A stretch of DNA of 58,859 bases, filler included, from Circinaria calcarea (taxonomy: Eukaryota): the NCBI GenBank assembly GCA_051942165.1. It is 5 parts of 5 records of this genome, joined end to end, with 100 filler letters (N's around TTAATTAATTAA, not from the genome) between each part and the next. Parts side by side here need not be neighbours in the genome. Positions count along the whole stretch, not along the records: positions 23,603 to 35,295 come from JAVECS010000659.1; 4 more parts are not named here. One strand, written 5' to 3'. This document shows, piece by piece, positions 11,707 through 47,180 of the stretch. The notes below the pieces were generated by a model. The model was not told where the DNA came from. It searched no databases and saw nothing but the letters and a program-made list of their open reading frames with translations. How positions within the stretch are numbered: position 1 is the stretch's first letter; the number at the start of each line of letters is the position of its first letter. Both the position numbers and the translations under genes were made by a program.

Positions 11707-11806
11707 NNNNNNNNNNNNNNNNNNNNNNNNNNNNNNNNNNNNNNNNNNNNTTAATTAATTAANNNNNNNNNNNNNNNNNNNNNNNNNNNNNNNNNNNNNN
11801 NNNNNN
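11707..11806. other. Artificial contig linker N44-TTAATTAATTAA-N44
   Basis: 100-bp spacer with six-frame-stop palindrome; genes on both sides are truncated. Confidence 0.98.
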
Positions 11807-17902: not shown

Positions 17903-18571
17903 TTGCCTCAGTGCCACCTCCGTAAACTCCGGAGGCCTCAGACTTCTTTCGTACTAGCTCCGCGTAAAAAAGGTTATTCCGATCCGATATTACATAACCC
18001 TTTTTTGAAAGAAGTCTGAGAGTTTCATCCACGGAATATATGGGACCTCGCGACATTTGTTAGCGATTTATATACAAAACCGCGCGACATCCCCGCGCGA
18101 CCAAAACATGATTTTTACTAATTATATGATCATTATGCATAATTAATTAAATCCGCTCTGACAATCTCTTCGAAATAATTATGGCTGTATATTAATTAAC
18201 TTTTTATTGAATTTGATCTGGTCGTTATTAAATAAAATAAGATAAACGTGTACAAAAAAAAGTAATTTTAATACGCCAACACTTCTAGAACCTCAACGCG
18301 AAACATTAATAAAAATTAGCTCTGACAGGTTATGGCTTTTGATAAGCTTTTAAATATGGCCTTTTCAGAATTCTAATACGCCGTGTTGTTATTGATTAAT
18401 TCGAAAAAATCACCTCTCACATAAAAATGTTGTTCCACTCACCAAAAAGGCTAGATGAAACCCTCAGACTGCGCTTCGCGCGCACGCTATTTTTAGCATC
18501 TACTAACTATATACAGCCATTCCGAAAAATACGCGGCAGCGAAGCAAAAGCAGTCTGAGTTTCTGAGACAA
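17903..18571. mobile_element. Non-autonomous TIR DNA transposon, copy 1 (669 bp), 9-bp TSD GTCAGCCTC
   Basis: TSD at 17894-17902 and 18572-18580; termini TTGCCTCAG / CTGAGACAA; both ends highly similar to 26384-27311; AT-rich interior. Confidence 0.9.
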
Positions 18572-23502: not shown

Positions 23503-23602
23503 NNNNNNNNNNNNNNNNNNNNNNNNNNNNNNNNNNNNNNNNNNNNTTAATTAATTAANNNNNNNNNNNNNNNNNNNNNNNNNNNNNNNNNNNNNNNNNN
23601 NN
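23503..23602. other. Artificial contig linker
   Basis: N44-TTAATTAATTAA-N44. Confidence 0.98.
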
Positions 23603-24495
23603 ATCAGAAGAAGAGATAACATCAATGCCAGGCATCCAATCCACGCAATACCAATCACACTGAACCACCGGCAAAGGCTCCAAAAGGACCTCCACTTTGC
23701 CGTCGTTAGCTGCTCGACCGACAGTTCCACTTGCATCATATTAAGGACCACGGACAAGATGCCAAATATGAAGAGGAAGGGACCGTAGAAGCGTGAAAAG
23801 TAAGCTGCATACTGACTGTGCACATCCTGAAACTGGAATTTGTAAAGGAAGATTTTGGCGTAGAAATTTAGCCTCGTTAATCTCAACTCGCCAAAGGCAT
23901 ATCGGCTAGAAACGTCTACATCCTCGATGCTATCGAATTGGGAGGTAAAGTCGGAGAATTGCGTCCAATCAACTTGGATAGGGATCAGGCGCAGTCGGTC
24001 GTCCCGAGCAATATGGAAGTCGGATTCGTGTTTGATGAGGTGATAATAAGTCCGGAGATATCCCAAAGCTGATCTTCTGATAATTTCTTGTTGGCAGCCT
24101 AAAGGCGACTTATCATTCAGTAAGTAGTGCGTCCAGAAATGATGGGAGAAGAGGTATCTCGGGATCGGTTTTATGAAGATCCTATCGTGAATCCAGACCA
24201 GATGTAAACGTGGATCCTCGGTAACGACGATTTCACGGCCCCGAACTTTCTCATGATGCAAAGGGAAGATGTTCGCACTAGACTGGGTCGACATCATCCA
24301 CAAACGGGGCGCCATCTTCTCCAAGTCTGGCGCGCAAAACTCCCGCTCTAGGAAATCGGTAAGATGCGGCAGATCATTCAGCTGGATACGGGGGTGGCCG
24401 GGTAGGGATGAGAGGTTCGAAGACTTCGGTTCCTGGCCAGACGTGGTTTCAAAGTCGTGGTTAAGCTGCGATGCCCTCGAAAATGGGCTACGCAT
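23603..24495 (-). CDS. DUF6601-like fungal membrane protein (3' truncated)
   Basis: Intronless ORF with PLHHEKVRGREIVVTEDPRLHLVW..RIFIKPIPRYL, LIKHESDFHIA, RYAFGELRLTRLN and C-terminal TM helices. Confidence 0.75.
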
Positions 24496-25131
24496 TATGT
24501 CTGCCTCGATCCCTTCCGGGGCATGATAACATAGACAGAACCCCAATGGAAATCCGAGAGATTGTGAGCGCGTCCTGAGACGAAGTTACGACGCTGTGTG
24601 ACCTATTATAGAGTTCTAGGTAGTGGAGCATCTTACAGCCTCGTGCCACACCCTTGTCCAACGTCAAAGAGCACTAACGTGGGAGTCGGGCAACCTGCAG
24701 GCTGCAGGGGGTTCTCTCGTTGCCTTCTTGTCTTAACCGTGCTCCGATTGGGAAACAATAGAATGAGACTGCGAGGCACGGTTATATGAAGTACCAGTAG
24801 GCAGCAAAGGGGCAGGTTCTCATGAAACTGATAGCAGGCATAAATGCACGAAGTGGTAGGGGCCAGTGAAACAATTCATTGGCACAGCTCTGATTTTATT
24901 CCCCTTTCCTTTCCCATCGTTTCTCCATCATTCTCCCCTCCTGTCACTCTTTTCTCCTTCATCTCTCTTTTTGATTGCTATCCTTAACCCGATCAAAATC
25001 AAGAGAACCTTAAGTCCATGGCACTGCTGATCGGTAACACGGTCCTCTCCTTGGCTCTGGCTATTGCTTGCAGGTGGCTCTCTTTCCTGCACTGAAGGTT
25101 TCCGAGTGTACCTGTTGTTAGAATTATCACA

Positions 25132-28100
25132 ATGGCAGAGTCCAGTGTGAGACAACCACCAGAAATCCAATCTTGGCAATTAGGGATCAAGGTCTACTAT
25201 GAGCCAACTGAATTGCCGGACGTGGAGTAAGTCTGCCATCTCCGCAATAGTAACGCTATTGATGACAACTGGTACATAATAGTTTAGTGGTGGTACACGG
25301 CCTCGGAGCAAACCCTGACAGTACATGGGAGTACAGACACAGCGATGAGCGTATCACCAACTGGTTACAAGACCAGCATATGCTCCCTAGTTATGTACAG
25401 AAGGCGCGTATAATGCGGTTTGGGTATGACTCTCGATGGTACGGGAACAAGGCTGTTTTGACAAGACTGTCGCCGGTGTCGGAAGATCTTTTGCTAGGAC
25501 TGAAGCGTGAGAGAAAGGTATGCCTTGACTCTATAAAGAACTTACCGTTCTTAGGAGATACTGACGATTGAAGACTTGTCAGAGAAGACCCCTTCTGTTC
25601 CTAGGTCACTGCTGGGGCGGCCTTGTAGTCTTTAAGGTAAGTCCAGCCATTAAATTTCAATCGGTTGCTGGATTAATAAGTATCAGGCTTTGCTTCTGGC
25701 GCAGAGCCAGGAGCACCGATACGAAGGCATATTCAAGTCCTGCTTTGACGTGGTCTCCATGGGTACTCCGTACCATGGTACGAGCGATGGATCCTCGATA
25801 CGTTCCGTTTACGCTGCCATTGCCGCAGCTTTCCCAGAGAACTAGATAGAGAACAGTATAATACGCACACTGAATCGTAGCAATGATACTCTCATGGATG
25901 TCGTCAACGGCTTCTTGGGACTTTGCGGGACCAAAGGTCCAGCACAGCACATGACCCTGCAGTGTTTCTATGAGAGACAGCCAACCAAAGTTGGATGGAT
26001 GATCGACAACGAAGAACTACCCAAGGTTGCTAAGCCCTATTATAGCTTTGCACTAGGTGAACGGCGATAGCTAACATGCGGTAGGAATTTATGGTCGATG
26101 AAACCTCTGGCACCCTTCCCGGACGAATGAATCATGGGTTGACGCTCGATCATTTCAGCTTGAAAAAATTCCCAGGCCCAGAGGATGGTAATTTCATTGC
26201 CGTTGCCACCGTCATAAAGGAACTCATCGAAAACGCGGTTGACGATGCTACAATGATACGAAAAGAGTAAATTCCCTAGTCATGAGGCCAGTTCGTATTT
26301 CACCTGAGTGATTCTAATTGAGACGGTGATCACAGTGCGACTAGAGGGAATGCTGACTCTCTTCAAATCATAGGACGGTTTCGTTGCCTCAGTGCCACCT
26401 CCGGAGGCCTCGGACTTCTTTCGTACTAGCTCCGCGTAAAAAGAGTTTTCCGATCCGATATTATGTAACCCTTTTTCGAGAGAAGTCTGAGAGTTTCATC
26501 CACAGAATATATGGGACCTCGCGACATTTGAATAAGAGAAAATCTAGGTTTTTTCACGCTGATTTACATACCAAATCCCCTGCGCATTATTAAAAGAGTT
26601 CGCTCTAATAGATTTTAATATAGTATTCGCTCTAGAAAACAGCTTCTTTATATTCTTTATTAACAGCGTTGAATATGAGTAGTAGTGTAAGGATCCTCTA
26701 CGAATAGTATGATGATCTTACGAATAAGGGTCGGTAAACTGTGTGATCATGAGCTCAATGGGTTCGCATAGCGTATGAATTATTGCTAAAGAATTCTGGT
26801 GTAACGCTTCGCGAGGAAAACCTTTCTCGTTAAGTTAGTACCTCGTGACCTCGGTGTATAGTTCATCCGTAGGGTTCGTAGGGGTTCTCGGGTAGAGCCT
26901 TGACAAGTAGGCTATTAAAAAAAGGCGAGTTTTTTACGAAAAAGTCGTGTGTAACGCGATATGAAATGAGACTTCGTCGTTTTTTTATCGATTTCATAGC
27001 CATTTCAACGTGCTTAATCTATATTATAAAATTAACGAAATATTTTAAAAAATAATTCGCTCTGATAAGTTCTAGCTTTTATTAAGCTGCTTAATATAAC
27101 CTTTTCAGAATTCCAATACGCTGCGTTGTTGTCGATTAATTCGAAAAAATCATCTCTCATACAAAAATGTTGTTCTCCTCACCAAAAAGGCTGGATGAAA
27201 CCCTCAGACTGCGCTTCGCGCGCACGCTATTTCTAGCATCAACTAACTATATATGGACATTCCAAAAAATACGCGGCAGCGAAGCAGAAGCAGTCTGAAT
27301 TTCTGAGACAACGGTTTCGGAAGAGCCTCGAGATAATCTTCGGGCCATCATGGGCGCGACCCAGATGGAGACTTCTATTGGCAGTCCTCATAGTCCTCAT
27401 AGTCATAGTTCCTACAACGGTGCTTCCGGTTCATTTGCTGGCGCATGGCCGACATGAAATTGCTACTGTCGCTTCGAGGTGAGATTCAGAACTCCCTGTG
27501 CAGGCTGGTAATAGGTTTTGACTGGTAAAAACGCCCAACCTTAGCCAATCCACGTCGCTCTCAGGTTCTTCCGCCACATTGTCAAAACTATCAGAGGCGA
27601 CATCCAATGTTTCTGACCATCCCTCAATTCCTTCTGCGGAGCTCTTGAATTCAACTTCTTCTCCGCCCAAGCCAACATCCTTGTATTTCTCGACCTCTTC
27701 AGTATCACCATCTCTTAGTGCAGCGTTGTCTTCCCAATCGTCCTCTATTGTTCCGGCTCCGGAGGCCATGCCTATCTCTTCTGATCCATCGATTCGTACT
27801 GTAGCTCCAGCAACTACCACAAGTCCAGCAAGATCTGATGTCACATCGACATTCCTAACATCAACGTTTGGCTCACCGTCAAAGACAGCCAGCGCTTCAC
27901 CAGCATCACCGACGCCTACTGCAACCCCAACTTCCTCAGAAGTCGTAAGTGCTGCATCGACGCCGTGTACTTGGGGCTGCTTGGGATGGGCGTGTACAGA
28001 CCTCAACGATTGCGCGGACCCGTATCCTTGTGTAAACAAAATTTGTGGCGCTACAACCGTCTCTTCCACCGCACCAGCAACATCGGCACCATGTAACTGG

Positions 28101-28181
28101 GGCTGCCCTGGGTGGTCCTGTACCCTAGACACGGACTGTCTATCACCGTACATGTGCAAGAACGGAGTGTGTGGCGGATGA
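25132..28181 (+). pseudogene. Disrupted gene: SesB/DUF676-like alpha/beta hydrolase + TM helix + Ser/Thr stalk + two Cys-rich repeats; in-frame TAG at 25843 and transposon insertion at 26384-27311
   Basis: Exons encode DLVVVHGLGANPDSTW, NWLQD..LP..ARIMRFGYDS, RPLLFLGHCWGGLVV, MGTPYHGT, CFYERQPT, MVDETSGTL..DHFSLKKF; frame continues across the excised element to the Cys-rich ORF 27579-28181. Confidence 0.8.
26384..27311. mobile_element. Non-autonomous TIR DNA transposon, copy 2 (928 bp), 8-bp TSD CGGTTTCG (9 bp ACGGTTTCG if the terminal A is counted)
   Basis: TSD at 26376-26383 and 27312-27319; same termini and ~150 bp left / ~250 bp right ends as copy 1; different, longer interior. Confidence 0.9.
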
Positions 28182-28504
28182 TCTGGTGCCCTGCATTTCC
28201 TCTTCTTTTCTTTCCACTACTGTCTGCAGGAAGATAGAGTATAGAAAGACTTAGATCTAGACAAAAGAAAGTCATGGGAGCTCACGTATAAGCGTCGGAG
28301 TTGGCGGTTATAGCGTTAGTATATTTGAGCACGCTAAGTTATGGACATTTTAGGCTTAGGGCTTACTTCGACTATGTACATAACTCATTACTCAATTGGC
28401 ACAGGATGGCTCTTGTGTCTTTTCATTGTCCACCAATCAATCAATAAAATTCTACCGATGGAGGCCCCTCTACTGAACCTTCTGCAGGTTCAAGTCTACA
28501 GACG

Positions 28505-31040
28505 TTAGACTGGCTGCGTCTCTCTCAGCAGCCACTTCATTGTCCTCTCATCCTTTCCTTCGAAGAAACCCCTGGTTTTCTCCAGGACCTCCGTATGATA
28601 TTCGTTCAGCCATTTCTTCTCCCTCTCCGACAGCAGTTCGGGTTCGATGAGTTTCCGACACATGGGGACCATGGTGACGTGCTCGAAACCGAGCCAGGGC
28701 TTCTCGCCGAAGGAGTGTGTCGTCTTGACTTCCCTGGCCATGATGATATCTACAATGGAGTAAGCTAACTGCTCAAACGGACGTGGAGACAGGGTAGAAG
28801 TATGGTAGGAAAGAGAGCTGTACTTTCGATGCGGATACCGAAATTGCCGTCTTCGTAGTATCCAGGCTCTTGGACATGTTAGCTCAGAATCTAGATTAAG
28901 TTTCTTGGTTCATGGGGAGGAAAGATACCATCTGAGATGACGTTTCCCGCCGAAAGAGCAACTTCGGTGTACTGCACCCGAGTGCCTACGCCTATGGGGC
29001 CTTCATGGACGTTCTGTAAGGCGGTGAGTAATTAGTTCAAATTAGCCTGAAAAAGATCAACATACAAGATACGATCCCACACCATGTCCCGTCCCGTGCC
29101 TGTAGTCCAAGCCTTCTTCCCATAGAAACTGTCGGGCTAGGGTGTCGAGGGCCAAGCCATTGGTTCCTTTCGGGAATACAACCTTATCGAGGGCAATCAC
29201 GCCTTTCAGTAACAGAGTGTATGCCTTCCTCTCTAGTTCCGTGGGCTCCCCAAAATGTAGGGTTCGTGTTGTGTCTGTAGTACCGTCTAAATACTGGGCG
29301 CCTGAATCGCAAAGATAGATGGCTTTCGGATCGATGATTGAACAATTCCCTGGTTCCGGCTTGTAGTGGATAACTGCAGCATTGGGTCCCGTCGATGAGA
29401 TGGTGTCAAAAGATAAACCAACAAAGTTCTCCTTTTGCCTACATACCTCAGTAAGCTTAGGTACGAAAGAAAAGTCAAACCATAGAGGTGACGAACGATC
29501 TGATTTGCTCCAATTTATCTGCAGCTTGCACTTCGTCAAGCGTAGATCCCTTTGCTGCGAGCTCTTCCTCAAGCCAAGCAAAATATTCACTGAGCGCAGC
29601 TCCGTCTCTTATATGGCATTGCCGCATACCTTCCAATTCCGTCTTGTTCTTGATTGCTTTGGCGTCACCAATAAGACTTCGTAGTTCATCCACCTTCTCT
29701 TCTCCGCCTAAACTCAGGCTCAGTGCCCACGATGCCTTCGTCGAGATCATAAACTTTCTTTTCGGAATAGCCGAATCTGGTTCGCTACTAGGGCTCGCCT
29801 CCAGTTCTAGAGATGCGCTTAGAGATTTGGTGTCTTCAAAAATCGCTTCGTAAGGACGGATATGGACGCTATCACCAAGATGTGAGCGTACTTCTGAACT
29901 GAGCTTGCTCGCATCGACATATATCGAGGCAGCGGTTGGCGTTACAAGAGCATATGAGAAGAAAACGGGATTATAGGGGATACTAAAGCCTTGTAAGCAT
30001 CAGAATCCGTTTCGTGGCTCCTGAGTTTAGCATACTCATTTCCACGGAGATTGTACAGCCAGGCAATCTCGTCCAGCATAGCTTTAACAGGTTACGTTAG
30101 TGCAGGAATACCTAAGGAAAAGTAGGCAAAGTCGACGTACAGATGATTAGTCCCGCGCTCTTCTTCTTTTCAAGTTCTTTTCTCAGATCTTCTACCTTCT
30201 CTTCGAATTTCTTCCCGGCATACTTTATATCTAGGACCTTGACGGCCTCGTTCGGCCGCGGAGGTCTTTTGTCGCCCCACACCAAATCGACTAAATTGGG
30301 TAAGTGGCCAACAAGCCGCCCTCCTCCCTTTTTCTTGATCTTTTCAGCGAGCTTGCGAGCATCGGCTAGAAAATCATCAGTGGGCTAGGCGGGCGAGTAA
30401 TCCCGTTAAGACTGACGAGCTGTAATGACCGTTGAATCGACAGCCACTGTCTTCCCTCCTTCTGCCTGCTCCACTGCCCTGGCCACTGTGAGAAAGTTGG
30501 AATTAGACCCATTCCCTTGAACATTCGTACCATTCTTGCCAAGTCGGTACATCTTCCAAACCCTGTTTCAGCAACTGCCAGTTGCTATCCAGTTGCTTCG
30601 AGGCTTGATTGAAGTACCGGCCATCGGTGGCCAATGCGGCCTTCTCCAAAGTAACCACAGCGGTTCCAGCGGAGCCGGAGAATCCAGATATGTGCTCTAG
30701 CTAATCAGTTACGCAGAGGTCAGAACGAAGCAGCTTCTGACCTCGACGAGCATCACATGGTGCTATATACTCTGACTGATGGCTATCCTCTGAAGGTATG
30801 ACTTCGCGTAATTAGCTCGGCAAGCAAAGGCCAGGATTGCTAATGGATCACACTGTACACGTCGAACTTATTGTCTTTCATCAAGCTTCTGAGCCGATCC
30901 AAACGTTCCGTAGTATGCACCGTCTCCATATCCAAGTGTAAAAGAGATTTCGGAGTCCAGGAAAAGGGTCTGTTAGGCACTGTAGCAACAATTGATCTTG
31001 ACACTCTTTTCAAACAAAGAGTCCGGTGAAGCAATAACAT
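28505..31040 (-). CDS. Xaa-Pro aminopeptidase (aminopeptidase P, M24B), many introns
   Basis: [93 protein letters not shown]. Confidence 0.96.
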
Positions 31041-31555
31041 TGATCAATTACTTTGCCCTTCTCAGTGTCGTCGATGCTGGTTTCTCCGAGAGACGCTTGA
31101 CCCAATCTGGCATAGTAGATTTTCCGTCGAGCAATTTGGGAGCTCGCCGTCTCTTGACAAGCACATTTATTGCTGAGGCTGGCAACCATAGAGCAAGTTG
31201 CCATCTTCAAATCACCGAAGCCTCTCACGCACTCTAGATGAGAACCCATAGACCGCTAGGAGTTGAATACTGCAGGGTCGTGGTAAAACTGCTATCTTAA
31301 ACTCCTATCGAGTCGTTTGCTTTTGCCTTTTCCATCAAAAATTGGTGTTGTAAGAGCATGCTGTCTTGCTAGTGTAGGATTAACTTAAGATCAGAGTCAT
31401 ATTGTACAGCATATTTGTTCTTTGCCTTTAAGAAAAGGTCATCATTTTCAGGCTTTTCCAAAAATATGCTACTTTGCAAACATCTCAGTATGCCTATGTT
31501 TGAACTCAGTTAGATCCACACATCAAGGAATAACTATTACAGGACTCATATCGCT

Positions 31556-34500
31556 ATGGCTCAACCTACGATAACAGAGGTCTCCGAGGACCTTCCTGAG
31601 CCTAAATCCCTCGAAGAGGTTGAAAGGGTATACACTCCGTTGGCTTCACTCTTCAGCCTTATGCTGAGTCCTTCTCCGTGCAGCTGGTACAATCGCTTTA
31701 TCAGCCAGGGTCTCCCCGGCGTATTTCACAGGCGGAACGTGCTCTTCAAAAGATACAGAGGTCTTCTCAAGGTTGGCAGCTTGCGGATGCTTTACTGCAG
31801 AGTCAAATTGCCAACGTTCGCTTCTTCGGTGCTCTTACCTTCTGCATAAAGATTAACAAAGACTGGTTAGAAAACTGTTTGTAAGTAGCTATTTGTGCAA
31901 ATGATGCTGACTTCGGATAAGGGATTCTCTAAACGATGAGGCTTCTGATGCTCTACTCGATCGGCTCTTGCTACGTCTTGTCCAGCTCGTTGCTGCGGAT
32001 GAAGGCGCCCTAGTGAAAAGAAAACTATGCTCTGCCTTAGTTGCCTACCTCCTATGTCCCTCAGTTTCTTGGGATTACTGTGTCAAGCACATACTATGCT
32101 GTTTCTACGCAAATACTGTTATACCCGTGAGAACGATAGATCAGTACCCACTCACAAGCGAGATTGTCCAGCGTCTCGGCGATGCTCAGCTTCTTACGAG
32201 TCTTTGGTTTGTTACTACCCTCGTTGAAGAGGTTGGAAAGACAAGCTCTGAGAGCATCCAAACGTATGCATTTGTGAGCCGTGTCCCCGCAACGTGAAAG
32301 GATATCTACTAATCAACCTACAGACATAAGTATCACGAGAGGGTCTTGTGCAACCTAGATGATATGGTCACTCTCTTGCGTCACGGTTTGAATGGCAAGT
32401 CCCACAACATAAACCTTGCCGAGGAGGGAATGAAATGCTACCATGTGAGTGATAATACATTGATATCACCCGTATTCCCTCCCTGACCTGACGATCAATC
32501 TATAGGCATTGGTTATGTATGCACACCGAGCTTGGATAGATAAGGCCATGGCCCTCGATCCCATAAGATTGTTGATACCACAAGCCGTTCAGCATCTGGG
32601 TGACAACGATATGTTCGATGTTACTGTGGAATTCTTTACAGATGTGATGACTAACTTTTCGTCCTTCTTCTTGGGCCAGCACTATGTCCTAATAGCCTCG
32701 ATATTGTGTGCCCCCGCAGCAGAAGAGAAAATATCGAGCTTGCGAGCCGGTGACTTTGACTCTGACGCGATGGCGTTCGGCAGGTTACTGCTTGCCTTTG
32801 GGGATGCCAACCTATCAGACCTGGCTAAGCATAACGATACACCTTCAAATAGACGGGTGCTTGATATGCTAACCAGTCTTTTGACATGTGAAGGATACGC
32901 CGTCTCCCAGGACGAGATCTGCTCTCAAACTCTGGAGTTTTGGACCACCTATATCGAGCATCTAACAGATGCGTTATTCGCAGAAGGGGAGAGTAAACCA
33001 GAGTGGATGCCCCCGGCTTTGCAATACGTGATAAGATCAATCGAAGCATGCTGGATTAAGATCAGGATGCCACCACCCGAAGTTGCTATTAATTGGGACA
33101 CCGAGGCTCGGACTGGGTTCAAGGCATTCCGAGCAGACGTTGAAGATTTAATCCAATCTTCCTACACGCTTCTAGGAATTGATCTATTTGAACGATTCAT
33201 ACGCCTGGCGCTGGAGGCTCTCGGTAGCCAAGATTGGCTTCATCTAGAAGCGACTCTGTTCTGCATCAAATCGCTCGCAGATCCTATCTCCGACGGGGAG
33301 GTTGGCGATGAAGGCCTTGCGAGGCTCTTCGGCTCCTCCTTGTTTTCGCAAATGAGCAATGACACATTAGCTATTCCAGCGAAGACACAGCAGACGGCCG
33401 TCACCATGATCAATCGTTACACTTCCTTTTTCGAACGACATGCGGAATACCTTCCACCTACATTGAATTTTCTCTTCAACGCCATCAAAACTACATCCCT
33501 GGGTATTGCAGCTCCGAGAGCCATTTTTGCGATTAGTTCCTCTTGTCGAAAGAACCTAGTCCTAGAATTAGGTGCCTTTTTGGAACAATATAAATCGTTG
33601 ACAAACGCAACAAATATAGATGCTAGTGCAAAAGAGCAGGTTATCGGCGCGATTGCTGCCATTATTCAAGCAATACCAGTAGGTGAAGCGCAAATCCAGC
33701 CTCTGAGTCAATTACTCCAATTCGTTGAAGCAGATATTCAAAAGTGTCTCCAGTTACAGCTCTCTACACAGATTGAAGAACTCGAGCAAGCATATGCAAT
33801 TGGCCTTTGTGCGCTACGATGCTTAACCAACATGGGGAAAGGATTACAAGTTCATGAAGACGAGGCCATTGACCTTGACGCAGATAAGCCTACCGAAACT
33901 ATCTGGGAGCATGGGTCAGGATTAACAGTACAGTCGCGGATCATACAGTGTTTTGGGACAGTTTTCAGCTCTTTGAGGCATGATGGCGATATTATCGAAG
34001 CGACCTGTCACATCCTGCGAACAGGTTATACAGAGACCTCTCCAGGGCCTTTCGTTTTTGCACCGAAAGTCTCAGAAGATATTGTCACCAGTAGTGACTT
34101 GACAACCCCCCGGCTAGCATACGTTCTGGATACCGCTGGTATCATGCTGAGCAGAAATTCCGCTAGGTCTTCCGACGAGCTTGATCATGCGGCATTGAGC
34201 TGTCTTGGACATCTTATTTATCTAATAAATGCTCTTGACTGTAGGTTTGAATTCTATCGTTACGCTACTATCCTACGCAAGCTGACAGTTTGTGGTAGGC
34301 AATCCTGGAACCGACCCTGAAATCGCATCCAGCTGTATCGATCTGGTAGAGAAGACTGTTGCGCGTTACCCCAAGCTGTTACTAGTCCCCGAAATCCAGG
34401 CTTCGATACCCAGTCTCTTCACCTTCACTCTAGTTTGCTTAGTAAGCACAGAGATCTACCCAAAGCGAGCAGCTGCGGCCTTCTGGGTAAGAACCTCTCC

Positions 34501-34962
34501 TCACCGTGTCAAGTCTTACCTGATAGTCATGTCAAAGTGCTCTGTCGTCCAGCTTCGCAATTTGCCCGCAGATATCCAAGCCATGGTGGACAGCGTCATC
34601 CACGAATACGGACCCCTAGTCTGCCTAGGCTTAGTGAGAGGGATCGCCGGAGAAGCCGCCCGTAGCGAGCTCGACGCCCTTATTGAGCCGCTGAAGAAAC
34701 TGGTCTTTAGGCAACCGAGGGCGAAACAGTGGCTCAGCGATGCCCTCTTCAATGACTCGTTCCCGAGCCCGCTGGTATCCGAGACGGATAAGAAGATCTG
34801 GCTGCAAAAGGTAATGAAGTGAGTAAACTCTTGGGATTCTGTCGTCTTCATCTCGAGCTAACGGGCTGTTTTCGTAGTTTGAGAGGAGCAAAAGGCACCA
34901 ATCAGGTCGTCAAGGACTTTTGGATGGCGTGCCGAGGGACGAGTCTGGCGTATGCGTCTTGA
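31556..34962 (+). CDS. Importin-beta family karyopherin (importin-13/Kap111-Mtr10-like), multi-exon
   Basis: LQKIQRSSQGWQLADALL..NVRFFGALTF, HEAT-repeat body (TLEFWTTY, WLHLEATLFC), GEAARSELD, C-term FWMACRGTSLAYAS*. Confidence 0.88.
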
Positions 34963-35295
34963 AGTGAAGGAAGGTCAAGCGCCTCCTTCTTTCTCCAGCA
35001 GTCCAGGCGGCATCAATAGACCGACAGTTCCGGAATTGTCTTCCTACACCTAAATCTCCAACAGAAAACCTTTCGAATTGTTGCTGTTCCTTTATATGCG
35101 CAATTCTACCTTTTTTTCTCTATTTACCTCCCCTTTCCCCCCCTCCCCGAGGGGGCCTGAATATTACCTTCTAGCCGTGAACTCATACCCCTTATTCCAA
35201 TCTTCTTTACCTCACCTAACTGACCCTCTTCCTTCTCTTGGCTTTCCCCCCCCCCCGGACCCGGCCGCTCACACATATGACGGATTCCCCCAATC

Positions 35296-35395
35296 NNNNN
35301 NNNNNNNNNNNNNNNNNNNNNNNNNNNNNNNNNNNNNNNTTAATTAATTAANNNNNNNNNNNNNNNNNNNNNNNNNNNNNNNNNNNNNNNNNNNN
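35296..35395. other. Artificial contig linker
   Basis: N44-TTAATTAATTAA-N44. Confidence 0.98.
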
Positions 35396-47080: not shown

Positions 47081-47180
47081 NNNNNNNNNNNNNNNNNNNN
47101 NNNNNNNNNNNNNNNNNNNNNNNNTTAATTAATTAANNNNNNNNNNNNNNNNNNNNNNNNNNNNNNNNNNNNNNNNNNNN
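47081..47180. other. Artificial contig linker
   Basis: N44-TTAATTAATTAA-N44. Confidence 0.98.

Follow-up and report, generated by a model that had tools for sequence, protein, structure and literature searches.

According to two published accounts, SesB-like/DUF676 alpha/beta-hydrolase domains are N-terminal effector domains of fungal NOD-like receptors (NLRs) (PMC4986451, PMC9815663). The first of these (Dyrka et al. 2014, PMC4986451) counts SesB-like domains among the commonest N-terminal domains of fungal NLRs and relates them to human SERAC1, with a predicted activity as lipases or esterases. Here we describe a locus of the lichen-forming ascomycete Circinaria calcarea (Lecanoromycetes, Pertusariales, Megasporaceae) in which a hydrolase of this kind appears to continue, in one reading frame, into a transmembrane (TM) helix, a stalk rich in serine, threonine and proline (S/T/P) and two six-cysteine (6-Cys) modules. 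The locus occupies positions 25132-28181 of a 58,859-nucleotide stretch of DNA (hereafter the window) taken from a metagenome-assembled genome (MAG), and it is interrupted by a transposon. The explanation that we regard as best overall, and as moderately probable, is that of one gene, now a pseudogene, whose product was formerly a protein of 582 residues that spanned the membrane once and had its N-terminus on the cytosolic side.

The gene model consists of eight coding pieces on the + strand (25132-25226, 25283-25517, 25583-25636, 25687-26025, 26085-26266, 26336-26383, 27320-27478 and 27545-28181), and each of its introns is bordered by GT and AG and is 50-69 nt long. When the exons are joined and the inserted element is removed together with one copy of its target-site duplication, a frame of 1752 nt results, comprising 582 codons plus a TGA stop (28179-28181). 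This frame contains a single internal stop, a TAG at 25843-25845 in exon 4 (25687-26025); no frameshift or second internal stop was seen across the 582 joined codons. The earlier note on this DNA had proposed just such a single restored frame, and the translated reconstruction bears it out. The coordinates it gave for the ATG at 25132, the TAG, the GAG TAA at 26265-26270, two introns, the TM helix, both modules and the final stop all hold in the sequence. Part of the frame is corroborated independently of our gene model, as residues 1-180 of the reconstructed protein are those of an NCBI model, 'MAG: hypothetical protein Q9187_003763 [Circinaria calcarea]' (P0011, 180 aa). Exon 1 (25132-25226) and the peptide of exon 2 (25283-25517) are both 100% identical to it.

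The N-terminal half is predicted to be a DUF676/SesB-like alpha/beta hydrolase, split by introns, as the earlier note had recognised. The domain begins in exon 2, which carries a VVVHGLG motif. Exon 3 (25583-25636) carries the nucleophile elbow GHCWGG (25604-25621, with its Cys codon at 25610-25612), and the domain ends in exon 5 (26085-26266) with the motif LDHFSL (His codon 26151-26153), which is conserved in the alignment with relatives. With P0011 as the query, six longer relatives were found among 2730 candidates. Three of them, from a Geoglossum umbratile MAG (P0013, 824 aa), Ampelomyces quisqualis (P0014, 909 aa, annotated 'DUF676 domain-containing') and Parastagonospora nodorum (P0015, 791 aa), were 46-49% identical to it (E 5e-34 to 4e-33; 5.8 billion clusters searched). 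A fourth (P0016, 435 aa) showed 50% identity over half of the query, and two NLRs of the NACHT-WD40 type (P0017 and P0018) showed 29-31% (E 1e-12 and 3.7e-8). Over residues 16-293 of the reconstruction, identity was 40-42% to P0013-P0015 and 27-29% to the two NLRs, whose alignment spans residues 7-295. Exon 2 could be aligned with P0012-P0016. P0012 is a 197-aa metagenome open reading frame (ORF), 43% identical to exon 2, that starts with a hydrophobic, TM-like stretch; from this stretch, membrane anchoring may recur in this type of hydrolase, there at the N-terminus.

The profile scores of this half fall short of family thresholds, which counts against the assignment: for the 180-aa P0011, Pfam gave 19.0 bits for DUF676 (PF05057; cut-off 20.3, E 0.0011) and 20.6 bits for Abhydrolase_6 (cut-off 26.3, E 0.0008). 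Single exons were too short for Pfam and produced sub-threshold matches only, exon 4 alone found nothing at E <= 0.001 when searched in longer proteins, and P0014 had no match among PDB sequences.

The elbow departs from the G-x-S-x-G pattern in having Cys in place of the nucleophilic serine. P0013-P0015 read GHCFGG at this point, and the NLR homologues read HSMGG, with Ser in that column. As the nearest relatives also have Cys, the residue is a trait of the subfamily and not damage. The predicted catalytic triad consists of the Cys of the elbow, an acidic residue and the His of LDHFSL. Within the searches run, this Cys-nucleophile, DUF676-like subfamily appears undescribed.

The locus shares its fold family and its order of motifs (HGLG, nucleophile elbow, GTPxxG, DH) with the SesB-like/DUF676 domains of fungal NLRs, and it is clearly homologous to P0017 and P0018. 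It differs from these receptors in its Cys nucleophile and in what follows the hydrolase, which is a TM helix, a stalk and Cys modules and not a NACHT, NB-ARC or repeat domain; no Pfam match to NACHT or NB-ARC was obtained in any exon or ORF of 25132-28181. The closest relatives found, P0013-P0015, share with it the Cys elbow and the LDHFSL motif. The TM helix, stalk and Cys modules are present at the locus and in none of P0013-P0015. P0013 and P0016 carry an N-terminal DnaJ domain. After the hydrolase, P0013-P0015 have a long charged region and then a shared, conserved C-terminal domain without a Pfam match. Judged by identity, the nearest relatives of the hydrolase are non-NLR proteins, and the NLR-borne domains are more distant. 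The proposal that the locus encodes an NLR effector whose nucleotide-binding part has been replaced, making a surface receptor wired to an immune effector, is therefore not supported: the nearest relatives lie outside the NLRs, and the NLR domains are the less similar ones and have a Ser nucleophile.

The frame of exon 6 is broken by an insert at 26384-27310, a mobile element of 927 bp that is AT-rich and a non-autonomous DNA transposon. It is flanked on the left (26375-26383) and on the right (27311-27319) by identical 9-bp copies of ACGGTTTCG. A 9-mer repeat is by itself at chance level here, as the same 1.3 kb contains 19 direct-repeat families. What makes the element certain is a second, shorter copy of 668 bp on another contig (17903-18570), which shares both ends and yet has a different flanking duplication, the 9-bp GTCAGCCTC. 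Bases 1-147 and 662-927 of the element match 17903-18059 and 18306-18570 at 88%, and the similarity starts and stops at the exact predicted terminal bases. Exactly two occurrences of the 19-nt terminus are present in the window, where 0.04 are expected. The insertion with target duplication in a coding exon that the earlier note had described is thus confirmed. The two copies differ in their interior, so the family varies internally, and the 668-bp copy lies in a stretch without long ORFs. Neither copy contains a long ORF, and the GC content drops to 0.29-0.35 inside the element.

Mutator-like elements (MULEs) are recognised by target duplications of 9-11 bp and long inverted ends. The element at the locus has a duplication of this length and a short terminal inverted repeat (TTGCCTCAG/TTGTCTCAG) of 9 bases, followed by imperfect subterminal inverted repeats; the imperfect inverted ends extend over ~150 bp and score 41, against 22.5 +/- 4.2 in 200 shuffles. 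The 9-bp duplications of both copies, these long degenerate ends and the variable interior point to the Mutator superfamily. The element is unlike a MULE in that no transposase is present and only the outermost 9 bases form a clean inverted repeat. As an alternative, a hAT-like affiliation would follow from an 8-bp reading of the duplication, which is possible at copy A of the element.

Before the insertion, the flanks on either side of the element, one leading back to the hydrolase and the other containing the TM helix, were contiguous, as is shown by the identical 9-bp duplications. For the same reason, a misassembly at a repeat that joined two unrelated halves was considered and rejected.

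The gene is disabled twice in this assembly, by the nonsense codon at 25843 and by the Mutator-like element in exon 6. The TAG lies inside the conserved domain. The stretch after it, searched alone against 11 subject sequences, aligns with five proteins (P0013-P0015, P0017 and P0018; E 3e-23 to 3e-6). In the relatives, the column of the TAG is occupied by G or K. As homology persists beyond position 25843, the TAG is a premature stop, and the copy is dead, as had been claimed. This status holds provided that the TAG is genuine rather than an artefact of assembly and that no long intron carries the element out of the transcript. Both assumptions would fail if the gene were alive in the organism, with the TAG being a minor allele of the MAG or an error in the assembly or its consensus, and with the element removed in an intron from the donor at 26267 to the AG at 27324-27325, so that exon 6 and the element are skipped and the frame is kept. 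The metagenomic origin of the assembly bears on whether the TAG is real and weighs against pseudogene status. The base after this AG is the third of its codon, in agreement with the phase of the donor at 26267, and neither the Cys nor the His motif of the catalytic site is damaged. On the other hand, the NCBI model also ends at the TAG, and an intron of 1059 nt would greatly exceed the other five in length (50-66 nt). We therefore regard a living gene as quite improbable and take the locus to be a pseudogene.

Next, we consider whether the two halves belonged to one gene. After excision of the element, the frame is continuous across the junction, running from exon 6 through the TM helix and intron 6 to the end, and it remains open for 282 codons past the junction. 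The left part of exon 6 (26336-26383) has a frame that is open back only to a stop at 26319-26321 and contains no ATG; no in-frame ATG occurs between this stop and the TM helix. As a consequence, the start of the TM/Cys part must come from an upstream exon, and exon 5 of the hydrolase is the only one available. The proposed intron 5 (26267-26335, 69 nt) is defined by splice signals only, and these (donor GTAAAT, branch-like site CTAAT, acceptor CAG) are as good as those of the other five introns, which have the backing of homology or of the NCBI model. Intron 6 (27479-27544, 66 nt) runs from GTGAGA to TAG. The locus is also hemmed in by two genes of the opposite strand, one of the DUF6601 family and one for an M24 peptidase, which leaves no room for a second promoter. 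Splicing of exon 5 to exon 6 would account for these observations. We find a single gene, with the hydrolase read through intron 5 into the TM, stalk and Cys part, to be the most economical model and a fairly probable one.

A number of results weigh against such a fusion. Hydrolase homology ends at about residue 295, before intron 5, so nothing comparative backs exon 6 or intron 5; tail residues 296-370 found nothing better than E 2.6. No hydrolase was seen in the eight proteins that carry the Cys module, all of which were read, five (all but P0004, P0005 and P0007) scanned with Pfam and four compared with the reconstruction by BLAST. No TM/Cys tail occurs in the six longer relatives of the hydrolase, and no hydrolase match lies within up to 10 kb of seven metagenome loci with modules. 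A stop at the TAA of 26268 would leave the hydrolase domain complete, and the in-frame Met at 26255, in exon 5, could start a separate TM/Cys product. Literature searches, which were of limited scope, found no paper on a DUF676 fungal protein with a transmembrane plus cysteine-rich build. An apparent continuation of homology across the exon 5/6 junction was rejected: the blastp alignment of P0017 runs to residue 334, with its last 40 columns almost devoid of identities. Of the earlier claim of one fused gene, the open frame was upheld, and a homologue joining both halves was not found.

These results would be explained if the locus gave two products. With intron 5 retained, the hydrolase would end at TAA 26268-26270 (GAG TAA, 26265-26270). 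A small type II protein with a 38-residue cytosolic tail would start at Met 26255 and be spliced over intron 5 into the TM, stalk and Cys part, or alternative splicing would give both. That the hydrolase domain is complete before 26266, where homology to relatives stops, that ATG 26255 is in frame, and that intron 5 has a length divisible by three with a stop right at its donor all agree with this arrangement. A 215-aa ORF (P0010) also has a stalk plus two modules, the same layout as the last exon of the locus, and no hydrolase in the called protein, although it may be a mere last-exon fragment from a prokaryote-type gene finder. The NCBI model covers the hydrolase part only, but it stops at the TAG of 25843 and not at 26268, and is silent on the natural end. 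A separate gene would moreover need a promoter inside the coding region of the hydrolase. We consider two products unlikely.

A third explanation is that the fusion never worked, the TM, stalk and Cys segment being left over from a different gene that came to rest just downstream of the hydrolase, with a frame that is open across the junction by chance. The architecture is unique among all sequences retrieved, and with two lesions already present the locus may be decaying, both of which would fit a relic. The state of the segment argues otherwise: all 12 Cys and the conserved W and G positions of both modules are intact, 282 codons are open after the excision junction, introns 5 and 6 have good splice signals, and apart from the TAG the 582 codons contain no frameshift or further stop. 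We judge a chance juxtaposition to be very unlikely, and the single gene remains our preferred model.

The part of this gene behind the hydrolase has the make-up that the earlier note had described, with a TM helix, an S/T/P-rich stalk and twin 6-Cys repeats. A 19-residue hydropathy scan revealed one strong TM segment at residues 336-355 (score 2.89). It is encoded at 27372-27431 in the right part of exon 6 (27320-27478), where it follows a basic stretch. The same scan gave no N-terminal signal peptide (N-terminal maximum 0.44, in exon 1). Lys and Arg number three in the 15 residues before the TM segment versus one in the 15 after it. This charge bias, together with the disulphide-rich C-terminus, suggests an N-in/C-out (type II) topology. 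The last exon (27545-28181) encodes the stalk of 141 aa, 57% of which are S, T or P and which is probably O-glycosylated, followed by the first module (27966-28046), a linker and the second module (28092-28172). A 261-aa open frame without a Pfam match lies antisense to the stalk (27431-28216, - strand) and is probably a by-product of biased composition.

When 24 modules are aligned, six Cys are invariant and W, G and W are conserved, in the pattern xCxWGCxGWxC-x5-C-x5-C-x4-C. In a search of 1.84 billion representatives, the modules of the locus matched a 618-aa protein (P0003) at E 6.9e-25 and seven other proteins. No Pfam family reached its cut-off over the module in the last exon, in the 24 single modules or in P0003, P0009 and P0010. 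DUF7107 scored 13.3 bits over 18 residues of the last exon (gathering threshold 24.6, E 0.11), and it matched 5 of the 24 single modules (best E 0.012). The best ESM Atlas score for the module, 0.82, is below 0.9 and serves as a lead only. Our limited literature searches also found no paper on the module, on DUF7107 or on a knottin carbohydrate-binding module with fungal glycoside hydrolases of family 5 (GH5).

Structure prediction yielded a pLDDT of 72.6 for a two-module model and 86.9 for a single module. The earlier note had suggested comparing the folded repeats with knottins, and cystine-knot peptides do dominate both Foldseek lists. The best superposition of the single-module model is on hainantoxin-III (TMq 0.73, root-mean-square deviation 1.1 A, 29 columns), and EETI-II and MCoTI are listed at E >= 0.26. 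None of these scores is significant (E >= 0.26 and >= 0.86 in the two lists), nor are those of the VIA wide structural search (Z <= 2.1), and both results tell against a knottin assignment. With six Cys in ~27 residues and a predicted single-module fold that superposes on inhibitor cystine knot (ICK) peptides, the module resembles knottins, and the models suggest a knottin-like fold. It differs from ICK peptides and from modules of the DUF7107, Dickkopf_N and EB types in its sub-cut-off Pfam scores and in being part of large proteins, including GH5-like enzymes, instead of a free peptide.

One of these large proteins is P0003, in which eight modules stand behind a catalytic part with a weak match to GH5 mannanases (E 3.6e-4; Pfam Cellulase E 0.046). 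A scan with a three-row module alignment located seven metagenome loci with modules, and in six of the seven a P0003-like catalytic region lies upstream of them. The remaining one (L003) is a 1.4-kb contig of modules only, too short for context, and three of the seven (L005-L007) look like the same sequence. In L004 (4801-5325) and L005 (2021-2632) the modules are broken by short, stop-containing, intron-like stretches, so these contigs are likely to be eukaryotic too. Where modules follow a glycoside hydrolase in tandem, their usual function is to bind carbohydrate or to attach the enzyme to the wall. Since GH5-like enzymes carry this module in tandem arrays at their C-terminus, we propose by analogy that the modules of the locus may bind glycans or the cell wall.

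Fungal cell wall stress sensors of the Wsc/Mid2 type have a Cys-rich head, an S/T-rich stalk, a single TM helix and a cytosolic part; their orientation is type I, they possess a signal peptide, and their tail is short and not an enzyme. The protein of the locus would resemble them in its Cys-rich head on an S/T-rich stalk, its single TM helix and its cytosolic part. Unlike these sensors, it has no signal peptide, is presumably of type II and would have an enzyme as its cytosolic part. No relation of the 6-Cys module to WSC was found by any search run.

From these features, the intact ancestor may be pictured as a type II membrane protein with a Cys-His-acid hydrolase on the inner side of the plasma membrane which, by analogy with its family, would act on lipid or acyl esters. 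From the hydrolase, the chain would pass through a basic stretch and a single TM helix to the 141-residue S/T/P-rich stalk and two knottin-like 6-Cys modules of 27 residues outside the cell. This ectodomain, with its knottin-like heads at the tip of an O-glycosylated stalk, could bind the wall or extracellular glycans. The likeliest role would then be to keep an acyl- or lipid-type hydrolase at the plasma membrane, beneath an ectodomain that binds the wall. Localisation of the enzyme by the ectodomain is as likely as sensing, and a receptor reading of the architecture is speculative.

The window consists of five pieces of ~11.7 kb, each from a different contig, joined by spacers (11707-11806, 23503-23602, 35296-35395 and 47081-47180) in which N runs surround TTAATTAATTAA. 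Features on separate pieces therefore have no physical linkage of the sort that their coordinates imply. The hydrolase locus sits on the piece at 23603-35295, between two genes on the - strand. The DUF6601 family gene (23605-24585; Pfam E 5.9e-86) is truncated by the contig end and divergent from the hydrolase gene. The M24 gene (28508 to 30000+), of the aminopeptidase P type, is intron-split, matches Peptidase_M24, M24_C and Creatinase_N_2, and is convergent with the 3' end of the hydrolase-TM-Cys locus.

The domains of this locus are thus of known kinds, and their combination is new in everything searchable; it is an orphan combination, seen once, in broken form, in a MAG, and known only as a pseudogene. 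Until an intact copy turns up, its biological weight is small, as it is a pseudogene in a single MAG. A far-reaching reading, which we regard as a long shot, is that intact orthologues in related lichen fungi form a new cell-surface receptor-enzyme of fungi. In these, a mucin-like stalk would bear knottin-like modules that bind glycans, sense an extracellular ligand of the wall, a photobiont or a microbe and control, through a single type II TM helix, a cytosolic Cys-type hydrolase homologous to an NLR effector domain, as a surface counterpart of the intracellular SesB-NLRs. Two findings matter independently of the fusion. One is a subfamily of SesB/DUF676-like hydrolases in which Cys replaces the nucleophilic Ser. 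The other is a module of 27-30 residues (CxWGCxGWxC...) without a Pfam family that occurs in tandem on GH5-like enzymes, and which is a candidate for a new carbohydrate-binding or wall-anchoring module. If the fusion is true, a type of hydrolase domain familiar chiefly from the intracellular immune receptors of fungi would here be coupled to an extracellular, disulphide-rich and probably glycan-binding head. This would be a starting point in the search for fungal surface recognition systems, here in a lichen symbiont.

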